DNA of 40,000 nucleotides from Virgibacillus siamensis (GTDB lineage: Bacteria; Bacillota; Bacilli; Bacillales; Amphibacillaceae). Location: NCBI RefSeq assembly GCF_900162695.1, contig NZ_FUIH01000007.1, positions 1 through 40,000 of the forward strand. The letters run 5' to 3'. A program made the position numbers and the translations under genes. Positions 1,852 to 17,034 of this stretch are shown here, in pieces (the first letter of the stretch is position 1; every line of letters starts with the position of its first letter). Below the pieces are notes generated by a model. That model saw nothing but the letters and a program-made list of their open reading frames with translations. It did no database searches and had not been told where the DNA came from.

Positions 1852-1933
1852 GCCGGTGTGGCGGAATTGGCAGACGCGCACGACTCAAAATCGTGTTCCT
1901 TCGGGAGTGTCGGTTCGAACCCGACCACCGGTA
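1852..1933 (+). tRNA. tRNA-Leu (CAA); its 3-prime half is the island attachment site
   Basis: 82 nt with a long variable arm. Acceptor gccggtg/caccggt, anticodon loop ctcaaaa, CCA not encoded. Positions 1878-1933 are duplicated at 16465-16520. Confidence 0.93.
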
Positions 1934-1935
1934 TC
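1878..1935 (+). repeat. attL (58-bp direct repeat, 3-prime half of tRNA-Leu)
   Basis: gcacgactcaaaatcgtgttccttcgggagtgtcggttcgaAcccgaccaccggtatc. It is identical to 16465-16522 except 1919 a versus 16506 c. Confidence 0.93.
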
Positions 1936-2107: not shown

Positions 2108-3097
2108 ATGGCAAGACGTAAGAACAACTTAAATGACCGTGAATTATCTATCGTCAGAAAAAGTGATAAGTCGTATGCAGAAACGTTTAAAGAAGCGATT
2201 GATTTATTTGTGACTGATTGCGATTTACGTAATTTAAGACCGTTTACTATCCGTTATTATCAAAACGAACTACAAGCGTTTCTAAACCAATTAGAAGAAC
2301 AAGGGATAGATATGAAAGAGTTAAAGCCCTATAACGTTACGGAAGAACATATCCAAGAAAATGTTATCCGTTACATGCGTATTTACAAAGGTACTAAGAT
2401 TGTTTCAATCAATACCCGTTTACGTGGGCTACGTTCGTTCTTTAATTTCCTTCACAAGAAGAAGCACATTCCTAAAAATCCAATGGAGAATATAACGTTA
2501 TTGAAAGATAGAAAACATGTAATTCCTACGTTCTCAAAAGAACAATTAAATATGTTGTTTAATCAACCCGATTTAACGACGTTTACGGGAGTTCGTGACT
2601 ATACAATAATGATGGTTTTCCTTGAAACTGGAATACGTGTGAATGAACTTGTAGGGCTATCACTAGCTGATATTCAATGGGAAGATAGTCTATTGAGGAT
2701 AAGGAACGCTAAGACGTATAGAGAACGTCTAGTACCCATTCAAAGCGAAATGAAGAAGCAATTAAAGAAGTATATCTCCATTAGGGGAGTAGTCGAAAGT
2801 GACGCTTTATTTGTAACCATTGACGGAACACCTTTGTTAAGAAGGTCAGTACAACAACGAATCGACATATACGGGGTGAAAGCCAAAATAAAAGATGTTC
2901 GTTGTAGTCCTCATACATTCCGCCATACGTTCGCAAAACTAAGCGTTCAACAAGGGGCTAATATCTTCGAATTGCAGACCATTCTAGGACATACAAGCAT
3001 GGAAATAGTTAAGACCTATGTAAACCTATTCGGAAATGATGTAAGGGAAAGACATAAGGATTTTTCGCCGTTAAAGGTATTAAAGAAACGGAGGTAA
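2108..3097 (+). CDS. tyrosine recombinase / integrase (int1)
   Basis: 329 aa. N-terminal SAM-like core-binding region. Catalytic-type motifs ETGIRVNEL, SPHTFRHTFA and LGHTSMEIVKTYV (R..HxxR..Y). RBS gaagggggg. Located 170 nt from attL. Confidence 0.9.
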   Translation: MARRKNNLNDRELSIVRKSDKSYAETFKEAIDLFVTDCDLRNLRPFTIRYYQNELQAFLNQLEEQGIDMKELKPYNVTEEHIQENVIRYMRIYKGTKIVSINTRLRGLRSFFNFLHKKKHIPKNPMENITLLKDRKHVIPTFSKEQLNMLFNQPDLTTFTGVRDYTIMMVFLETGIRVNELVGLSLADIQWEDSLLRIRNAKTYRERLVPIQSEMKKQLKKYISIRGVVESDALFVTIDGTPLLRRSVQQRIDIYGVKAKIKDVRCSPHTFRHTFAKLSVQQGANIFELQTILGHTSMEIVKTYVNLFGNDVRERHKDFSPLKVLKKRR

Positions 3098-3102
3098 CGA
3101 AA

Positions 3103-3300
3103 TTGAACAACCTTCCTAATATCGACAATATGACTACCGTAGAGGCTATCCATTGGTACACGGGGGAGGTTGCTAAAGTTACTAGCCGTAAAGCACGTAT
3201 CAATGGAACTTATTCAGAGGAATATTTAAAGGCTTTGAATGAGTGGAAGCTACGCCTTAACAAAAGGTGTAAATTTGACCGTAAGCAAAGAATGTTTTAG
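3103..3300 (+). CDS. small hypothetical protein (65 aa) directly downstream of int1
   Basis: ORF with a TTG start 5 nt after the int1 stop. No recognisable domain. An excisionase or accessory role is only a positional guess. Confidence 0.35.
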   Translation: MNNLPNIDNMTTVEAIHWYTGEVAKVTSRKARINGTYSEEYLKALNEWKLRLNKRCKFDRKQRMF

Positions 3301-3301
3301 T

Positions 3302-3333
3302 AAAAAAGAAAAAGCCACGCGGTGCAACGCGTG
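3302..3333 (-). terminator. GC hairpin with U-run on the minus strand (possibly bidirectional)
   Basis: cacgcg-gtgcaa-cgcgtg (3316-3333), preceded on the plus strand by aaaaaagaaaaag. This gives hairpin + T-run when read on the minus strand. Confidence 0.5.
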
Positions 3334-4009
3334 ACCTCAAATCTTAGCTATAACTAAATACGGAAACCCGACTTAGCTACTTACATATATTAACGAAAAA
3401 AATTAGTATATGCAAGGCTTATTAAGTAATGCTTTTTTAGCAGCTATGCAGGTTTTCCCGTCGTGGAGTGCCGACTAATACGACGATAATATAACCTTGA
3501 AAGGTTCGCCCTGCCGACGCAATAACAAGGGCTAGGACACGCTTTAACGTTCCCTATTGCGTTTTGTGTCCGAAGGGTGAAAAGCTACCCCTAAGTGCTG
3601 AACGAAGGAAGGGTAGACCGTTTACGGACGGTGTAGGACAAGCCACAACTAACATAGAATCCATTTCTAGTCCCACAATAAAAGGGTGTCGAATTAGCTA
3701 ACTGAAAAGCCAAAGCGTAAGGTTAGGGACTATGTGAACCTGCTAGGGCTACTTGTTGCAGTAGGCTTGTTAAGGAGAAATCTTTTCGTTAATAGGGATA
3801 CACTGCGGACACCTCAATAATTCCCGACGGATGTTGTCCAAGTATAACGACTATTCTTATAGCAGATTATTTTTTAAAAATCTCGTTATAAGGTAGTCGT
3901 TACTATGCCTTACGTATTCCTAAACTAGCCCTCAAGATGTTGCCAAAGATAAATACCAAATGCAAGTCTAAGGACGAAAATAATCATTAAAAAAAGGATT
4001 AGATACAAT
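3334..4009. other. ORF-free, comparatively GC-rich, hairpin-dense region (candidate large structured RNA or cis-acting site)
   Basis: No ORF of 60 aa or more on either strand for ~0.7 kb. Many local helices, e.g. cgtcgt/acgacg 3459-3485, gccct/agggc 3508-3531, ggacacgc/gcgt..gtgtcc 3534-3571, accgt/acggt ~3617-3632. There is also a ~58-nt extended hairpin at 3845-3902 (taacgacta/tagtcgtta plus inner pairs). Confidence 0.4.
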
Positions 4010-4168
4010 ATGGATAACCGCCAAGCGTTAGGATATATGTTACTAGCTTGTAAAAACATTCGATTTGATAAAGAAACTTAAAGGGCTATGTATTTCCAAT
4101 TCGATATGAAAACGGAGGAAGAAGCCGAGGAAATAGGACATTATTGGTATAACGAATTACTAAAATAA
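4010..4168 (+). pseudogene. small ORF (~52 codons) interrupted by an in-frame TAA
   Basis: MDNRQALGYMLLACKNIRFDKET-TAA(4079-4081)-RAMYFQFDMKTEEEAEEIGHYWYNELLK. The same frame stays open on both sides of the stop. Confidence 0.4.
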
Positions 4169-4341
4169 TAATAATTTCAGTTCGTAAATACTTCAAGTAA
4201 GACCTAGATAATTGGTTTTTTATGTTAAAATGATAATGAAATATTACAAAGTTTATAAATGGGTGCACCTACACTAAAGTGGCAGGAAAGTGCAACAAGA
4301 ATAGTATAAGATGGTTACATATAGAAACAAAGAAGGGGTGA

Positions 4342-4893
4342 ATGATTATGATGGTCAGTCCAAAAGAGTTTTTTCAAAAAGATTTGAGATATATTATTAG
4401 GTCTGCGGTAGAAGCGGATGGAGAAAATCTATCTGATGTAAGGGTACAAATAGATGGTGAAACAGAAAATATGGATAGAGAAAAAGGTGAAGCGTTTATT
4501 GATGAAGTAAGTTTTAAACAGCTTATCAAAGAAGATGCAGAAAGTCCTCATAATCTTTTTTTGGTTTGTGAAGTGAATGGAAGAATTGTTGGTTTTTCAA
4601 GGTGTGAAGGGAACCATTTGAAAAGGTTGTCGCATAAAGTTGAGTTTGGTGTTTGTGTACTAAAGGATTTCTGGGGATATGGCATTGGAACAAACTTGTT
4701 AAAAGAAACAACTAAATGGGCTGATACAAAAGGAATCAAAAAGATTATATTGAATGTACTTGAAACGAATGGAAATGCAATAAAGCTTTATAAAAAATAT
4801 GGATTTGAAATAGAAGGAATACTAAAGAATGACAAACTATTGTCGGATGGGAACTATTATAACACCGTAGTAATGGGAAGGTTTAACGGATAA
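4342..4893 (+). CDS. GNAT family N-acetyltransferase
   Basis: 183 aa. Acetyl-CoA-binding type motif FWGYGIGTNLL ... NGNAIKLYKKYGFEIEG. RBS gaagggg. The true start may be an ATG 6-9 nt downstream. Confidence 0.85.
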   Translation: MIMMVSPKEFFQKDLRYIIRSAVEADGENLSDVRVQIDGETENMDREKGEAFIDEVSFKQLIKEDAESPHNLFLVCEVNGRIVGFSRCEGNHLKRLSHKVEFGVCVLKDFWGYGIGTNLLKETTKWADTKGIKKIILNVLETNGNAIKLYKKYGFEIEGILKNDKLLSDGNYYNTVVMGRFNG

Positions 4894-5004
4894 ACTCCCT
4901 TATTTAACATAAGGGTGTGAATGCTGAACGAGGTTTTTGACTTTCTTTTTTTGAATTAAAGTAGCAGAATTCTTCAATAAGATTTAATGATAAGGGGTTA
5001 GGTA

Positions 5005-5400
5005 ATGCGAGATAGAGGTTCGGTAGTAATAGTAGATAATAAAAAGGTTGGACTAATTCAAAGAATTAGAGATGGTTATACTTATTATGTTTTTCCTGGT
5101 GGAGGAATAGAGGGTGATGAAACACCAGAAGAAGGTGCAAAAAGAGAAGCCCTTGAAGAATTGGGAGTAGAAGTAAAGGTTAATGAGTGCATAGCAAAAG
5201 TTGAATTTAGTGGAACGCAATATTTTTACTTATCCGAAATTGTAGAAGGAACATTTGGAACTGGGCAAGGCGAAGAGTACACCAACGAAAAGAGAGATAG
5301 AGGAACATATTTGCCAATGTGGATAGATATAGATAAGTTATCGTCTATTGATGTTAAACCGAGAGAAGTCGCTTTAAAAATTCAATCATTATTCAATTAA
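5005..5400 (+). CDS. Nudix hydrolase
   Basis: 131 aa. Nudix box GGGIEGDETPEEGAKREALEELGV fits Gx5Ex7REUxEExGU. RBS aagggg. Confidence 0.88.
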   Translation: MRDRGSVVIVDNKKVGLIQRIRDGYTYYVFPGGGIEGDETPEEGAKREALEELGVEVKVNECIAKVEFSGTQYFYLSEIVEGTFGTGQGEEYTNEKRDRGTYLPMWIDIDKLSSIDVKPREVALKIQSLFN

Positions 5401-5530
5401 GGCAGGACATAGTATTTTTTTGAACACTTTCATGGGGTGTTCTTTTTATTTGCTAAACAAATATCGTAAACTTGGCAAGTTGAATAATACAAATTGAAAT
5501 ATAGTTCCTATCAAGGGAGGATTACATAGT

Positions 5531-6274
5531 ATGAAAGGTGAAGTTTATCGAAGTGGTGAATCTATTTATATAAATAAACCCAAAGCAAACAAACTAGCAT
5601 ACACTGAATACAATGAAGAATTATTCAATATTTTAAAGTCTTATACTTGGACGGTTAAAGGGGAATATCTCTATTCTAACAAGCTAAAGAAATACCTTCA
5701 TAGATATGTGATGGAATTCTATTATGGCAAAGAAGCAATAGACGAAGCAAATAAAAAGAACTTTGTTGTTGACCATATAGACAATAACGGTTTCAATTGT
5801 CGAGTAAGTAATTTATGTTTTATCCCTAACAACTTGAATAAGGCTAAAGGATTAACTTTCGACAAAAGAAGAATCGAAATGAAAGAGGACATGACCTTAA
5901 CTTTCTATAAAGACTTCAGTACGGGACAATTCTAGATAACAATCGCTTTCCATAAAGAGTATTTTTACATTGTTAACGATAAAGCTATTCAAGTTGATAA
6001 AGCTTATTTTGTTTATGAGGATGACTTTGAACTTGTATTAAATGATTCAGGGAAAATTCTACAACAAGTAAATAAAAACGGGGAGTTCGACGAAAATAAG
6101 TTAAGTTGTAAAAAAATGCTATATCACCCCTCAACCTATATTAAGCTAACACCCGAGGAAAAGGGAAGCCCTATAATCGAAAGGGATGGAAAGCAATATA
6201 TAATTCTAAATGAACATACCCGTTTAGGAGAAATCCCACCTGATAAAAATTTATATGATGAGGACAAAATATAA
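5531..6274 (+). pseudogene. HNH-motif protein with in-frame TAG at 5933-5935 (134 + 112 codons)
   Basis: The N-terminal part contains VVDHIDNNGFNCRVSNLCFIPNNLNKAKG (HNH-like). After the TAG the same frame stays open for 112 more codons (ITIAFHKEYFYIVNDKAIQVDK...DEDKI) to TAA at 6272-6274. Confidence 0.6.
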
Positions 6275-6488
6275 AAATGATTGATAATTTTAAGGGGGAC
6301 GTTTTAGAAAAACTGATATGAGATGTTTCTAATGTTATTAGTCACAAATACCACTTGTTTTGAAGAGGTATTTAAAGAAAGGAAGTAATTTCCTACAAGT
6401 GTTATGACCCTTTGTCACAAAGATTTAACAATCGCTATAACCGTTGGCGGACAAGGGGTTCAGCCGTTTTGAAGAAAGTGCATAGAAA

Positions 6489-6540
6489 TTTTTTCAATTC
6501 AGCACTTGTATTTTAGCCCAATACAATGCCTATATAATAG
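6489..6540 (+). promoter_or_regulatory. promoter/operator copy 1 (TTGTAT-N9-ATACAA inverted repeat, TATAAT-like -10)
   Basis: gaaattttttcaattcagCACTTGTATTTTAGCCCaatacaatgccTATAATag. The 17-bp core is identical to 8012-8028. Confidence 0.5.
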
Positions 6541-6771
6541 AAACATACGATAACTTACAAAGTTAAAGTTAATCGTTGTTAAAACAAATCGCGTTAGCGA
6601 TTCGGCGAAGCCGATAAGGGTTTAAGGCGAAGTATATTCTTTTGTAAAGAATCAAAAGAGATTACGCCTTCGGCGTGTTACTCACTTCGTTCGTAACTGA
6701 ATATATACAAAAATAGATATTAAATAATTATTGTTTACAATATAAAAGAATAAGACGGGTTATCCCGTTTT
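6541..6771 (+). ncRNA. candidate ~230-nt non-coding transcript between promoter copy 1 and a hairpin terminator
   Basis: No ORF. Consecutive hairpins atcgc/gcgat, tcggc/gccga and aaggcg...cgcctt with inner attcttt/aaagaat. An alternative acgcc-ttc-ggcgt pairing exists. Ends with agacggg-ttat-cccgttt + T (6753-6771). Confidence 0.35.
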
Positions 6772-6914
6772 ATATAGTCAAGTGTTCAAAGCCTTCGCCA
6801 CAAGCCCCATGCCCCACATGGAAACGGAGGGGGCTAACACTTTTAATTACTTCTTGTTTATGTCTTTATGTGAGTGTTTACATGGTATTATTTCTCCTTT
6901 CAAAGACGAAGAAA

Positions 6915-11734: not shown

Positions 11735-11751
11735 ACTTCCCGTTCTTTTTT
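11726..11751 (+). terminator. rho-independent terminator
   Basis: cggga-ttaaact-tcccg followed by ttctttttt. Confidence 0.65.
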
Positions 11752-11836
11752 ACATACTAGGCTTACGAGTTAGCCGTTACGTTTTTGCGTTATACGGCGA
11801 TAGGGGATATTTAGGGAAATTGATAATATTATTACA

Positions 11837-11873
11837 AGACGGAGGACATTACGTTCCTTCGTCTCTTTTTTTT
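11837..11873 (+). terminator. second rho-independent terminator
   Basis: agacggagga / tccttcgtct 10-bp stem (one G-U pair), then cTTTTTTTT. Confidence 0.75.
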
Positions 11874-12065
11874 ATATACATGTAGCTTATGCTAGTAACA
11901 TGTTTGAGAGAAGCCCTACAACGAAGTGAAACATTCTTTATCGACCAATTACCCATCTAACTTCGTCGGAGAACGCCTTATTTAATTTCCCTTATATTTA
12001 GTCTTTATATACTATGGTTATTTTCGTTTGTGCCGTTCCTTCTCGTTCTTCAGCTTCTTCTAGTT

Positions 12066-12245
12066 CTACATCAAAAGATACCATTGTTCCTTCCATGTAG
12101 CCTTTATAACTTCGTCTACTAAATTTGTATCACATACGATACTTCCACGTTTTGTTAAAATATTGGCGTAGTGTTGGGCTTTTGTTGGTGTGGAATTTGC
12201 AAATTTAAGGACTTCTTCTTCCGTCATATAACGTAACTTTGTCAT
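12066..12245 (-). CDS. small leftward ORF (59 aa), below the ORF-track cutoff
   Basis: RBS ggagggg 7 nt before the ATG. MTKLRYMTEEEVLKFANSTPTKAQHYANILTKRGSIVCDTNLVDEVIKATWKEQWYLLM. An overlapping frame continues MVSFDVELEEAEEREGTAQTKITIVYKD. Confidence 0.5.
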   Translation of the reverse strand: MTKLRYMTEEEVLKFANSTPTKAQHYANILTKRGSIVCDTNLVDEVIKATWKEQWYLLM

Positions 12246-12273
12246 TATTTAACCCCTCCAATTCTTTTATTTT

Positions 12274-12282
12274 ATTATATCA
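12274..12282 (-). promoter_or_regulatory. extended -10 promoter element (TGATATAAT) for the leftward small ORF
   Basis: The minus strand reads ...gaattttTGATATAATaaaataaaag, about 30 nt upstream of the ATG. A TTGATA hexamer lies 22 nt upstream, too far for a canonical -35. Confidence 0.5.
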
Positions 12283-12320
12283 AAAATTCGGCTGGTACGT
12301 TTATCAACCTTTTGTAAAGA

Positions 12321-12357
12321 TAGATACTTTTAGATAAGGGTTAGATAAGGATAGATT
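12321..12357 (+). repeat. iteron-like TAGAT(A/T) repeats at ~10-11 bp spacing
   Basis: aTAGATActttTAGATAAGGgtTAGATAAGGaTAGATTacc. Four copies, two of them 9/9 identical (TAGATAAGG). Confidence 0.6.
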
Positions 12358-12360
12358 ACC

Positions 12361-13060
12361 GTTAATAATGCACCTTGTTAATGCAGGACGGTTGGTTTAG
12401 TAAAGAGTATGACGAATAGTAAAATACAAATAACGTCCCATACGTACACACCCCTAATTATCTTTATTTGTGTCTATACCCCTTTTCCTTCCAGTAACGG
12501 CGGGTGTTTAACGTATATTCCCCGTATGTATTGTATATGGGTAGTGGGACAAATAACGCCCCTCATAGCGTAGCATACACCGTCAATTATTCTACAAGAT
12601 ACTAAGCTAATCCCTTATACGATTTTCGTCTTATTCCGTGGGGAATCGGACGAATATAACGCGTTAGATAATAAGACTAAACGAAAGACCAAGGATTAAA
12701 GACTATTGATTCCCTTTTTCTTTCGTCTGATTCCTCTTAACCCTTCGTACTTCCGTAACGTGATTCCTTATCGTTCACAATCAATGTGGGTTTACGTATA
12801 TATTAACGTTCTAAGCGTTTGATAACGTATAGACCTACACGCCTAACCAATCTTCTAACGGCTTGCTACGTGCTTTCTATGGCTTCTCATAACGTCCTAT
12901 ATAAAGTGTATATGTACGAAAAGAGAAGGGGCGGGGGAACGGGGGACGCACACCCTAGCAATCCCACACCCCGCATGATTTACGTATATATTCTAAAAAC
13001 CCCTTCCCGTGTCCTAATTCGATAAATTACCGATTCTACAAAATATAAATTTTCATAAAA
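12361..13060. other. ORF-free region with inverted and direct repeats (candidate origin, packaging site or ncRNA)
   Basis: Only short, start-poor ORFs. Inverted repeat ttcgtcttattcc-gtgg-ggaatcggacgaa (12625-12653). The motif recurs at 12722-12734 and 7888-7900. 14-bp repeat tttacgtatatatt at ~12791 and ~12979. Stem acgaaaga/tctttcgt 12681-12726. G-run patch ggggcgggggaacggggg at 12927-12944. Confidence 0.4.
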
Positions 13061-13307
13061 AATTAGGGTGTTTTGTGCCTTCGTTAATTCCTTCAATCAT
13101 CATTTACGGTTATTCAAACATGGCTATCCGTTACTTCCGAAAAATATACTTCTCCAAAAAATTAAGGGCTTTTGTGTCACAAGATAGCCCCGACTTTTCC
13201 AAAAAGATATTAGAAACATGTCACAAATTAAGTTCATTTACCACAACTATAAGTAGTCATCTTGTAAAAGTAAATTTAGCAGCTATACATCAAAAGGAGG
13301 AATTACA

Positions 13308-16398: not shown

Positions 16399-16435
16399 AA
16401 TTGACGTTTGAATATACGGTCAAATCACGGTTTCT
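16399..16435 (+). repeat. sub-terminal island repeat, right copy
   Basis: Imperfect copy of 1960-1995, sharing the core gaatatacNgtcaaatca. Confidence 0.6.
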
Positions 16436-16464: not shown

Positions 16465-16522
16465 GCACGACTCAAAATCGTGTTCCTTCGGGAGTGTCGG
16501 TTCGACCCCGACCACCGGTATC
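16465..16522 (+). repeat. attR (58-bp direct repeat, orphan 3-prime tRNA-Leu fragment)
   Basis: 57/58 identity to 1878-1935. There is no 5-prime tRNA half upstream of it. Confidence 0.93.
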
Positions 16523-16878: not shown

Positions 16879-17034
16879 ACTCTTATCAAGAGAGGCAGAG
16901 GGACTGGCCCTGTGAAGCCTCAGCAACAGACTTTTTAGTACTGTGCTAATTCCAGAAAGCGTGAAGCTTGCAGATAAGAAGAGTATTGAACACACGGCAA
17001 AACCCTCTTCTTATTTCAGAAGGGGGTTTTTTCG
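16879..17034 (+). promoter_or_regulatory. SAM-I (S-box) riboswitch with terminator/antiterminator
   Basis: ctcttatcaagagaggcagagggactggccctgtgaagcctcagcaac...gtgctaattccag...gataagaagag matches the S-box core. The antiterminator pairs ataagaagag with ctcttcttat. Terminator ccctcttc/gaaggggg + T6 at 17001-17034. Confidence 0.9.

Follow-up and report, generated by a model that had tools for sequence, protein, structure and literature searches.

Replicons of the MRB and ColE1 type share a layout of two RNAs, in which no Rep protein is encoded and a long sense RNA is opposed by a short antisense inhibitor (PMC3035462). A further Rep-less origin, oripLS20 of the Bacillus plasmid pLS20 (positions 64,501-65,745), holds all the information for autonomous replication without a rep gene, by a mechanism described as unknown, and a role for DnaA has been suggested (PMC8557374). 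Replicons based on pLS20 establish in a Pol I mutant (PMC9743546), and a pLS20 origin placed in the chromosome is tolerated and allows excised circles to replicate (PMC11447821). How oripLS20 initiates replication has been open since 1995, and the literature searched yielded no description of an RNA structure, an antisense RNA, or an island form of this origin. Here we describe a chromosomal segment that we read, with a probability of about 0.7, as an oripLS20-related, Rep-less replication module that would work through RNA, the antisense-controlled origin of a satellite-like island.

The window, a 40,000-nucleotide stretch of Virgibacillus siamensis DNA (contig NZ_FUIH01000007.1, positions 1 to 40,000 of the forward strand), starts with the end of an rRNA operon followed by a tRNA cluster. 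A 14.6-kb island bounded by 58-bp repeats encodes two tyrosine integrases, a small-terminase-like HTH protein, an XRE-like protein, HNH proteins and GNAT/NUDIX cargo. Searches of Pfam, PHROGs and NCBIfam assigned no protein of the island to a Rep, primase or helicase family. The ends of the island and the genes leading up to the segment are as follows:

1878-1935, plus strand: attL, the 3' part of tRNA-Leu(CAA), a 58-bp repeat 98% identical to 16465-16522
2108-3097, plus strand: int1, a tyrosine integrase gene (Pfam Phage_integrase, E 7.5e-33) with catalytic R, HxxR, H and Y all present
3103-3300, plus strand: a 65-aa ORF between int1 and the element, matching no known family in family searches
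16465-16522, plus strand: attR of the 14.6-kb island, the second copy of the 58-bp tRNA-Leu(CAA) repeat

Several other features of the island and its edges deserve mention in their own right. A 19-bp direct repeat with one mismatch lies near both att sites (1969-1987 and 16409-16427), and its copies are probably integrase arm-binding sites. Just beyond attR, at 16880-16980, is an ordinary SAM riboswitch. The small ORF at 4010-4168 has an in-frame stop at 4079-4081, and homologues behind the element in L002 and L090 likewise look broken. An HNH-domain ORF at 5531-6271 is split by an in-frame stop at 5933-5935, and L066 has a 199-aa relative 36% identical to it. A second ORF-free region (6290-6900), flanked by the HNH gene and the end of int2, folds strongly (z -5.6); it is shared at 80% only with the island of G201 and has no plasmid match. 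Finally, 11750-13300 is long and mostly ORF-free, with short direct repeats and G-runs, and is a candidate packaging or control region that folds no better than shuffles.

The segment downstream of int1, at 3301-4009, had been proposed in an earlier note, made from the sequence alone, to be an ORF-free, hairpin-dense stretch of raised GC content and a candidate large structured RNA. Neither strand holds a common-start ORF of at least 60 aa (the longest stop-to-stop frame is 66 aa), and GC content is indeed raised, at 40% in the segment and 47% in its core compared with 35% elsewhere in the island and 32% for the cargo at 4010-6400. Every helix listed in that note was recovered within 1 nt of its position. 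Folding of the single sequence is modestly better than that of shuffles (z -2.6 for the plus strand, -2.2 for the minus strand, and -2.7 for 3440-3970). The features of the segment are:

3301-3382, minus strand: predicted ~80-nt antisense (countertranscript) RNA of two hairpins, of which the second, with the loop UUGCAC, forms an intrinsic terminator (3338-3311 plus U-run)
3387-3415, minus strand: sigma-A-type promoter for the antisense RNA, TTGCAT-17-TAATAT
3414-3438, plus strand: candidate attenuator of the sense RNA, a weak hairpin and T-run overlapping the antisense promoter
3459-3632, plus strand: 5' domain of the RNA, with helices 3459-3485, 3493-3506, 3508-3532, 3535-3571 (inner stem 3546-3563) and 3575-3590, and a UACG hairpin at 3617-3632
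3552-3558 and 3791-3797, plus strand: long-range pseudoknot in which the loop 3552-3558 pairs with 3791-3797, a 7-8 bp complement kept via compensatory variants
3638-3785, plus strand: 3' domain of the RNA, with helix 3638-3644:3764-3770, insertion stem 3668-3674:3726-3732, a hairpin at 3740-3761 and a GNRA hairpin at 3772-3785
3846-3901, plus strand: long, near-perfect hairpin with a T-rich loop (z -8), a candidate primer-processing or primosome-assembly site
3905-3965, no strand assigned: conserved pyrimidine box (3913-3920) and a right-end motif, TTGCAT-17-CAACAT when read on the minus strand

Homologues of this element fall into three groups. BLASTN, pattern scans and profile searches recovered window-like copies (group A), about 20 distinct ones, from integrase islands, B. 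subtilis-group prophages and plasmids. Group B, reached from a diverged plasmid copy, comprises 107 plasmids, most belonging to the B. cereus group and many ~50-56 kb in size, plus circles of 7-8 kb. The third group is made up of the pLS20-family origins. The element is intergenic in every copy examined, and no conserved small ORF of the kind expected for a type I toxin was seen in the homologues. Among the small group B circles, L104 (7,243 bp) has eight genes, none of them a Rep gene, and the proteins of L106, another circle of 7-8 kb, match no Rep family. The small plasmids L108 and L115 encode a protein of 150-165 aa that, judging from a weak DnaD_N/HTH_36 match, could be an unrecognised initiator. 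One gene of the window island is 40% identical to a gene of an element-bearing 8.5-kb B. cereus plasmid, and L003 is a sister island in the same tRNA gene. With a covariance model, 7 of 151 genomes of the family and 16 of 151 sampled genomes of the order were found to carry the element, the genome studied having a single copy; a genome-wide pattern scan gave 17 matches, about half of them chance matches inside coding DNA. Searched against the INPHARED phages, the window and L012 had no match and group B was matched by one unannotated phage. In another island, one that has the element located behind its integrase, an AimR-like regulator is encoded as well (L087:3764-4903).

Six chromosomal copies in genus g220 (L149-L152, L155 and L156) are of a different kind. 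They lie behind a DUF1659-DUF2922-YvrJ cassette, one or two per genome and at different loci, with neither an integrase nor an antisense promoter detected, so not every copy of the element need be an origin. These copies may represent a very small mobile unit or an RNA that has been domesticated.

Covariation was assessed on these homologues. In 12 diverse copies of the 5' domain, 92% of cells are paired and both partners change in 24 of 31 pairs, an amount of covariation that 0 of 500 shuffles reached, and registers slid along the alignment are only 32-47% paired; because the structure was derived from the same 12 sequences, these controls lean in its favour. An alignment of 21 sequences shows compensatory changes in 28 of 51 predicted pairs. 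The pairing of the pseudoknot is kept by differing sequence pairs in window-like copies, B. cereus-group plasmids and pLS20-family origins, with strands mostly 160-240 nt apart. Helix 3638-3644:3764-3770 is paired at all seven positions in 20 of the 21 copies, its sequence being fully rewritten in L002, and it encloses an insertion common only to the window, L002 and L090. A hairpin with a 4-nt GNRA-type loop and a varying stem precedes the 3' strand of the pseudoknot in all three groups, and the UACG hairpin recurs in all three as well. In each group the consensus fold of the plus strand is more stable than that of the minus strand (-56 vs -43, -158 vs -116, and -247 vs -210). The covariation, the pseudoknot, the GNRA and UACG loops, and the greater stability of the plus strand are signs of a plus-strand RNA, and comparative sequence analysis thus strongly supports the view that the segment encodes a real, conserved, pseudoknotted RNA of ~500 nt.

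Two finer points of the fold concern alternative or additional pairings. The earlier note had described mutually exclusive pairings at 3574-3616; both are present within 1 nt, and covariation supports the 3575-3590 hairpin. The loop of helix 3459-3485 and a box near 3805 form a candidate second pseudoknot, both sides of which are nearly invariant. It was also observed that the two strands of helix 3638-3770 occur in reversed order in group B and pLS20-family copies relative to group A.

At the downstream end of the segment, the long hairpin at 3846-3901 has a counterpart in all groups, including pLS20, with differing stem sequences, and a TTGAC-type hexamer marks the right end of nearly all copies of the three groups. 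The hairpin, the pyrimidine box and the promoter-like right end (3846-3965) are likely the working end of the element as we model it. The promoter-like motif at 3937-3965, on the minus strand and facing into the element, has a conserved -35 and a mostly weak -10 in the three groups, pLS20 included. A right-end TCAAG was considered as an IS200/IS605 end and dropped, as neither an adjacent guide hairpin nor a transposase was seen.

The kinship with pLS20 is beyond the reach of BLASTN: a search with the segment found no pLS20-family plasmid, and a search with oripLS20 found no window-like copy. A covariance model built from group A only, by contrast, places oripLS20 at 65,013-65,180 with 46.5 bits (E 1e-12) and five helices in register, the next best score being 6.5 bits, and it also scores six of six other pLS20-family origins and most group B plasmids. 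A profile HMM of group A gives two collinear matches in pLS20, the second at 65,325-65,528, both within the published 1.1-kb replicon; 300 shuffled decoys reach at most 3.2 bits, against 16.9, and the 3' match survives removal of L003, L102 and L087. In the reverse direction, a profile of the pLS20 family only finds L003, L087 and L105 and has no direct match to the window, so that the link on this side runs through the window-like model and L003. The window and the pLS20 core are 53% identical, with an alignment score of -43 compared with -100 +/- 9 for shuffles, and the element module spans most of the 1.1-kb pLS20 replicon. By this sequence and structure comparison, the segment is a distant homologue of the oripLS20 core.

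Its place in the published classification is nevertheless outside class E, whose plasmids were grouped by a BLASTN cut-off (E < 2e-133, cover > 50%; PMC8557374) that the segment does not reach, making it a distant relative and not a class E member as defined there. With class E it shares the character of a small ORF-free module with no initiator gene, and it lacks DnaA boxes at conserved positions: none occurs in the segment within one mismatch, and eight occur within two mismatches where 16 are expected. The perfect DnaA box of pLS20 is part of a stem that varies, and six relatives lack it. A DnaA-box model was dropped for the window copy, which has no box within one mismatch.

Upstream of the RNA core lies what appears to be a control unit on the opposite strand. 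The minus-strand terminator in the earlier note was confirmed (3338-3311 plus U-run) and belongs to the predicted antisense RNA, which folds at -30.6 kcal/mol. Antisense RNAs of two or three hairpins, ending in an intrinsic terminator, are predicted for homologues including pLS20, and the terminator loop is nearly identical in the two (UUGCAC in the window, CUGCAA in pLS20). The rightward promoter proposed earlier, TTACAT-17-TAGTAT, is present at 3381-3409 but agrees with the consensus at just 6 of 12 positions and is not conserved among the nearest homologues; the conserved promoter here is on the minus strand, with TTGCAT at 3415-3410 and TAATAT at 3392-3387. A sigma-A-type promoter on this strand, at most 165 nt upstream of the first helix, occurs in 20 of 23 copies where 4.4 would be expected, and in a second, mostly new set of copies in 11 of 19 against an expected 3.1. 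The attenuator hairpin varies in strength, from -4 kcal/mol in the window and -7 in L003 to -31 at the equivalent position of pLS20, and is strong in group B plasmids. As two island ORFs carry in-frame stops and this hairpin is weak, the island shows decay and the window copy of the element may be inactive. In L005, L013 and L014, an antisense promoter and an attenuator-like hairpin (the equivalent of window 3387-3438) occur with no RNA core detectable behind them, which suggests that this control unit may serve other targets as well.

The source of the sense RNA appears to differ between plasmids and islands. A sense promoter 230-420 nt upstream was found in 10 of 10 plasmid copies (1.5 expected) as opposed to one of nine integrase-linked copies (1.2 expected), and in one of eight additional integrase-linked copies, all eight of which have the antisense promoter. 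The promoter cut-offs were set after the data had been seen and the plasmids are related to one another, so these counts are supportive and not proof. In several islands the antisense terminator begins just tens of bases past the integrase stop codon, and in the window a terminator scan detected no plus-strand terminator between int1 and the element. Because integrase-linked copies mostly have no sense promoter, the RNA of the element is probably, in islands, the tail of the integrase transcript, which in the window is that of int1; a promoter scan found none for int1 either, so read-through from int1 is deduced from absence.

If the segment is an antisense-controlled origin, as we favour, its operation may be pictured as follows. 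A transcript begun upstream of int1 would run through the leader (3301-3440) into the core, where the ~80-nt antisense RNA could pair with the leader via its hairpin loops and cause the sense RNA to stop or misfold at the attenuator (3414-3438), a block that would limit copy number and keep the origin quiet in the chromosome. RNA that escaped the block would fold, and its 3' part would stay paired with DNA as an RNA-DNA hybrid close to the long hairpin and box (3846-3965), priming the leading strand or recruiting the host restart primosome (PriA, DnaE) with Pol I not needed. In B. subtilis, extension by DnaE and the PriA restart pathway are routes from an RNA-DNA hybrid. Since a Pol I mutant supports pLS20 replicons (PMC9743546), a strict ColE1 route does not apply, and we infer from this that the hybrid would be extended by DnaE or used by the PriA pathway. 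Induction of the integrase would then activate both excision and replication of the satellite circle at once, and the observation that an integrated pLS20 origin is tolerated and replicates excised circles (PMC11447821) fits an origin parked in an island. By analogy with pLS20, the element probably enables this small phage-satellite-like island, once excised, to replicate with no initiator protein. A broader proposition, which we offer tentatively and at somewhat less than even odds, is that pseudoknotted RNAs of ~500 nt in Bacillales start replication without Rep or Pol I, explaining pLS20, and that a class of phage satellites has made such an RNA the 3' tail of its integrase mRNA, a single antisense-controlled transcript thereby leading to both excision and replication.

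Other explanations have to account for the same RNA. It might be real and serve a purpose other than replication, as an ornate RNA, as an addiction, defence or transcript-control element travelling with origins, or as a silent remnant; the YvrJ-cassette copies without a control unit, the copies in the accessory region of integrating prophages, and the lack of an Rfam family constraining function would all suit such a role. We regard it as unlikely, given that the module covers most of the 1.1-kb pLS20 replicon, is present on small plasmids with no recognisable Rep, and carries an antisense unit typical of copy-number control. The large structured RNA of the earlier note accordingly survives in part: covariation, RNA-type tetraloops and the pseudoknot place it on the plus strand, but it is probably not a free-standing ornate RNA, because it is homologous to the oripLS20 core and has an antisense-RNA control unit attached. 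Less probable again is an origin that acts as single-stranded or cruciform DNA, through DnaA-dependent unwinding or as an sso-like priming signal. The DnaA role proposed for pLS20 (PMC8557374), its independence of Pol I, and the long hairpin with its promoter-like right end would fit a DNA signal of this sort, whereas the segment has no DnaA box within one mismatch and the perfect pLS20 box is missing from six relatives, RNA is indicated by the GNRA and UACG loops, the G-U pairs and the asymmetry between strands, and an antisense RNA requires an RNA target.

The two remaining explanations are much weaker. A multi-domain fold with GNRA loops and long-range pairings, which we take to resemble domain I of group II introns, could be the remnant of a group I or group II intron or another ribozyme, and we consider this very improbable: the Rfam search suggested in the earlier note, at gathering thresholds and up to E=10, gave no match to any family, whether group I or II introns, including group-II-D1D4, or ROOL, GOLLD, OLE, HEARO or raiA; domain V/VI was not seen; and neither an interrupted gene nor a reverse transcriptase is nearby. 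A separate ROOL search of the genome had no match, but the control of that search was also silent. That the segment is pseudogene debris or a set of chance hairpins, the alternative raised in the earlier note, draws on a single-sequence folding z of only about -2.6. It is hardly credible and is refuted by homologues with no conserved ORF and many indels, by covariation far above controls, and by the covariance-model match to oripLS20.

For oripLS20 itself, the element family offers an RNA model at the level of single helices, together with a pseudoknot and an RNA that is a candidate for copy control. If the reading is true, RNA-based replication would extend to Bacillota, and Rep-less Bacillus plasmids, phage-plasmids and satellites would be accounted for, with a marker for typing them. 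Copies that differ in their antisense loops could yield compatible Bacillus vectors.

Compared with known systems, the island resembles the PICI/SaPI satellites in being a 10-15 kb element in a tRNA gene with an integrase, an XRE-like gene and a small-terminase-like gene, and it differs in that the primase-Rep genes and iteron origin of those satellites were not found, the candidate origin being an RNA directly behind int1. Of the parts that helper-dependent excision and packaging would involve, the island shows att sites, integrases and a small-terminase-like gene. Size, ornate fold, and location in a mobile element near tRNA genes recall ROOL and GOLLD, whose models the element does not match. 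As in RNA-primed replicons, a long sense RNA is predicted together with a short antisense RNA that has its own promoter and terminator. The likeness to ColE1 RNA II and RNA I lies in a Rep-less structured sense RNA of ~550 nt with a short antisense RNA over its leader; sequence or Rfam similarity to RNA I/RNA II is absent, and ColE1 needs Pol I where pLS20 does not. The Vibrio MRB (PMC3035462) is likewise Rep-less with an origin of ~500 bp, and its RNA I of ~68 nt, with two stem-loops and a terminator, is comparable to the predicted 80-nt RNA, while the RNA-based origins of mycobacterial plasmid-prophages (PMC7157519) are Rep-less and ~500 bp long; both belong to other hosts, neither is described as integrase-coupled, and the comparison is by description. 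Closest is oripLS20, the class E theta replicon of B. subtilis pLS20 and p576, which has the same helix order, pseudoknot, UACG and GNRA hairpins, long hairpin, right-end motif, and upstream antisense promoter and terminator, also with no rep gene. The two differ in sequence (~53% identity, invisible to BLASTN) and in that no DnaA box and no sense promoter of its own were found for the window copy. They differ also in setting, as oripLS20 resides on a conjugative plasmid and the window element in a tRNA-integrated, integrase-bearing, satellite-like island, and the coupling to an integrase is what this locus adds to the element family.
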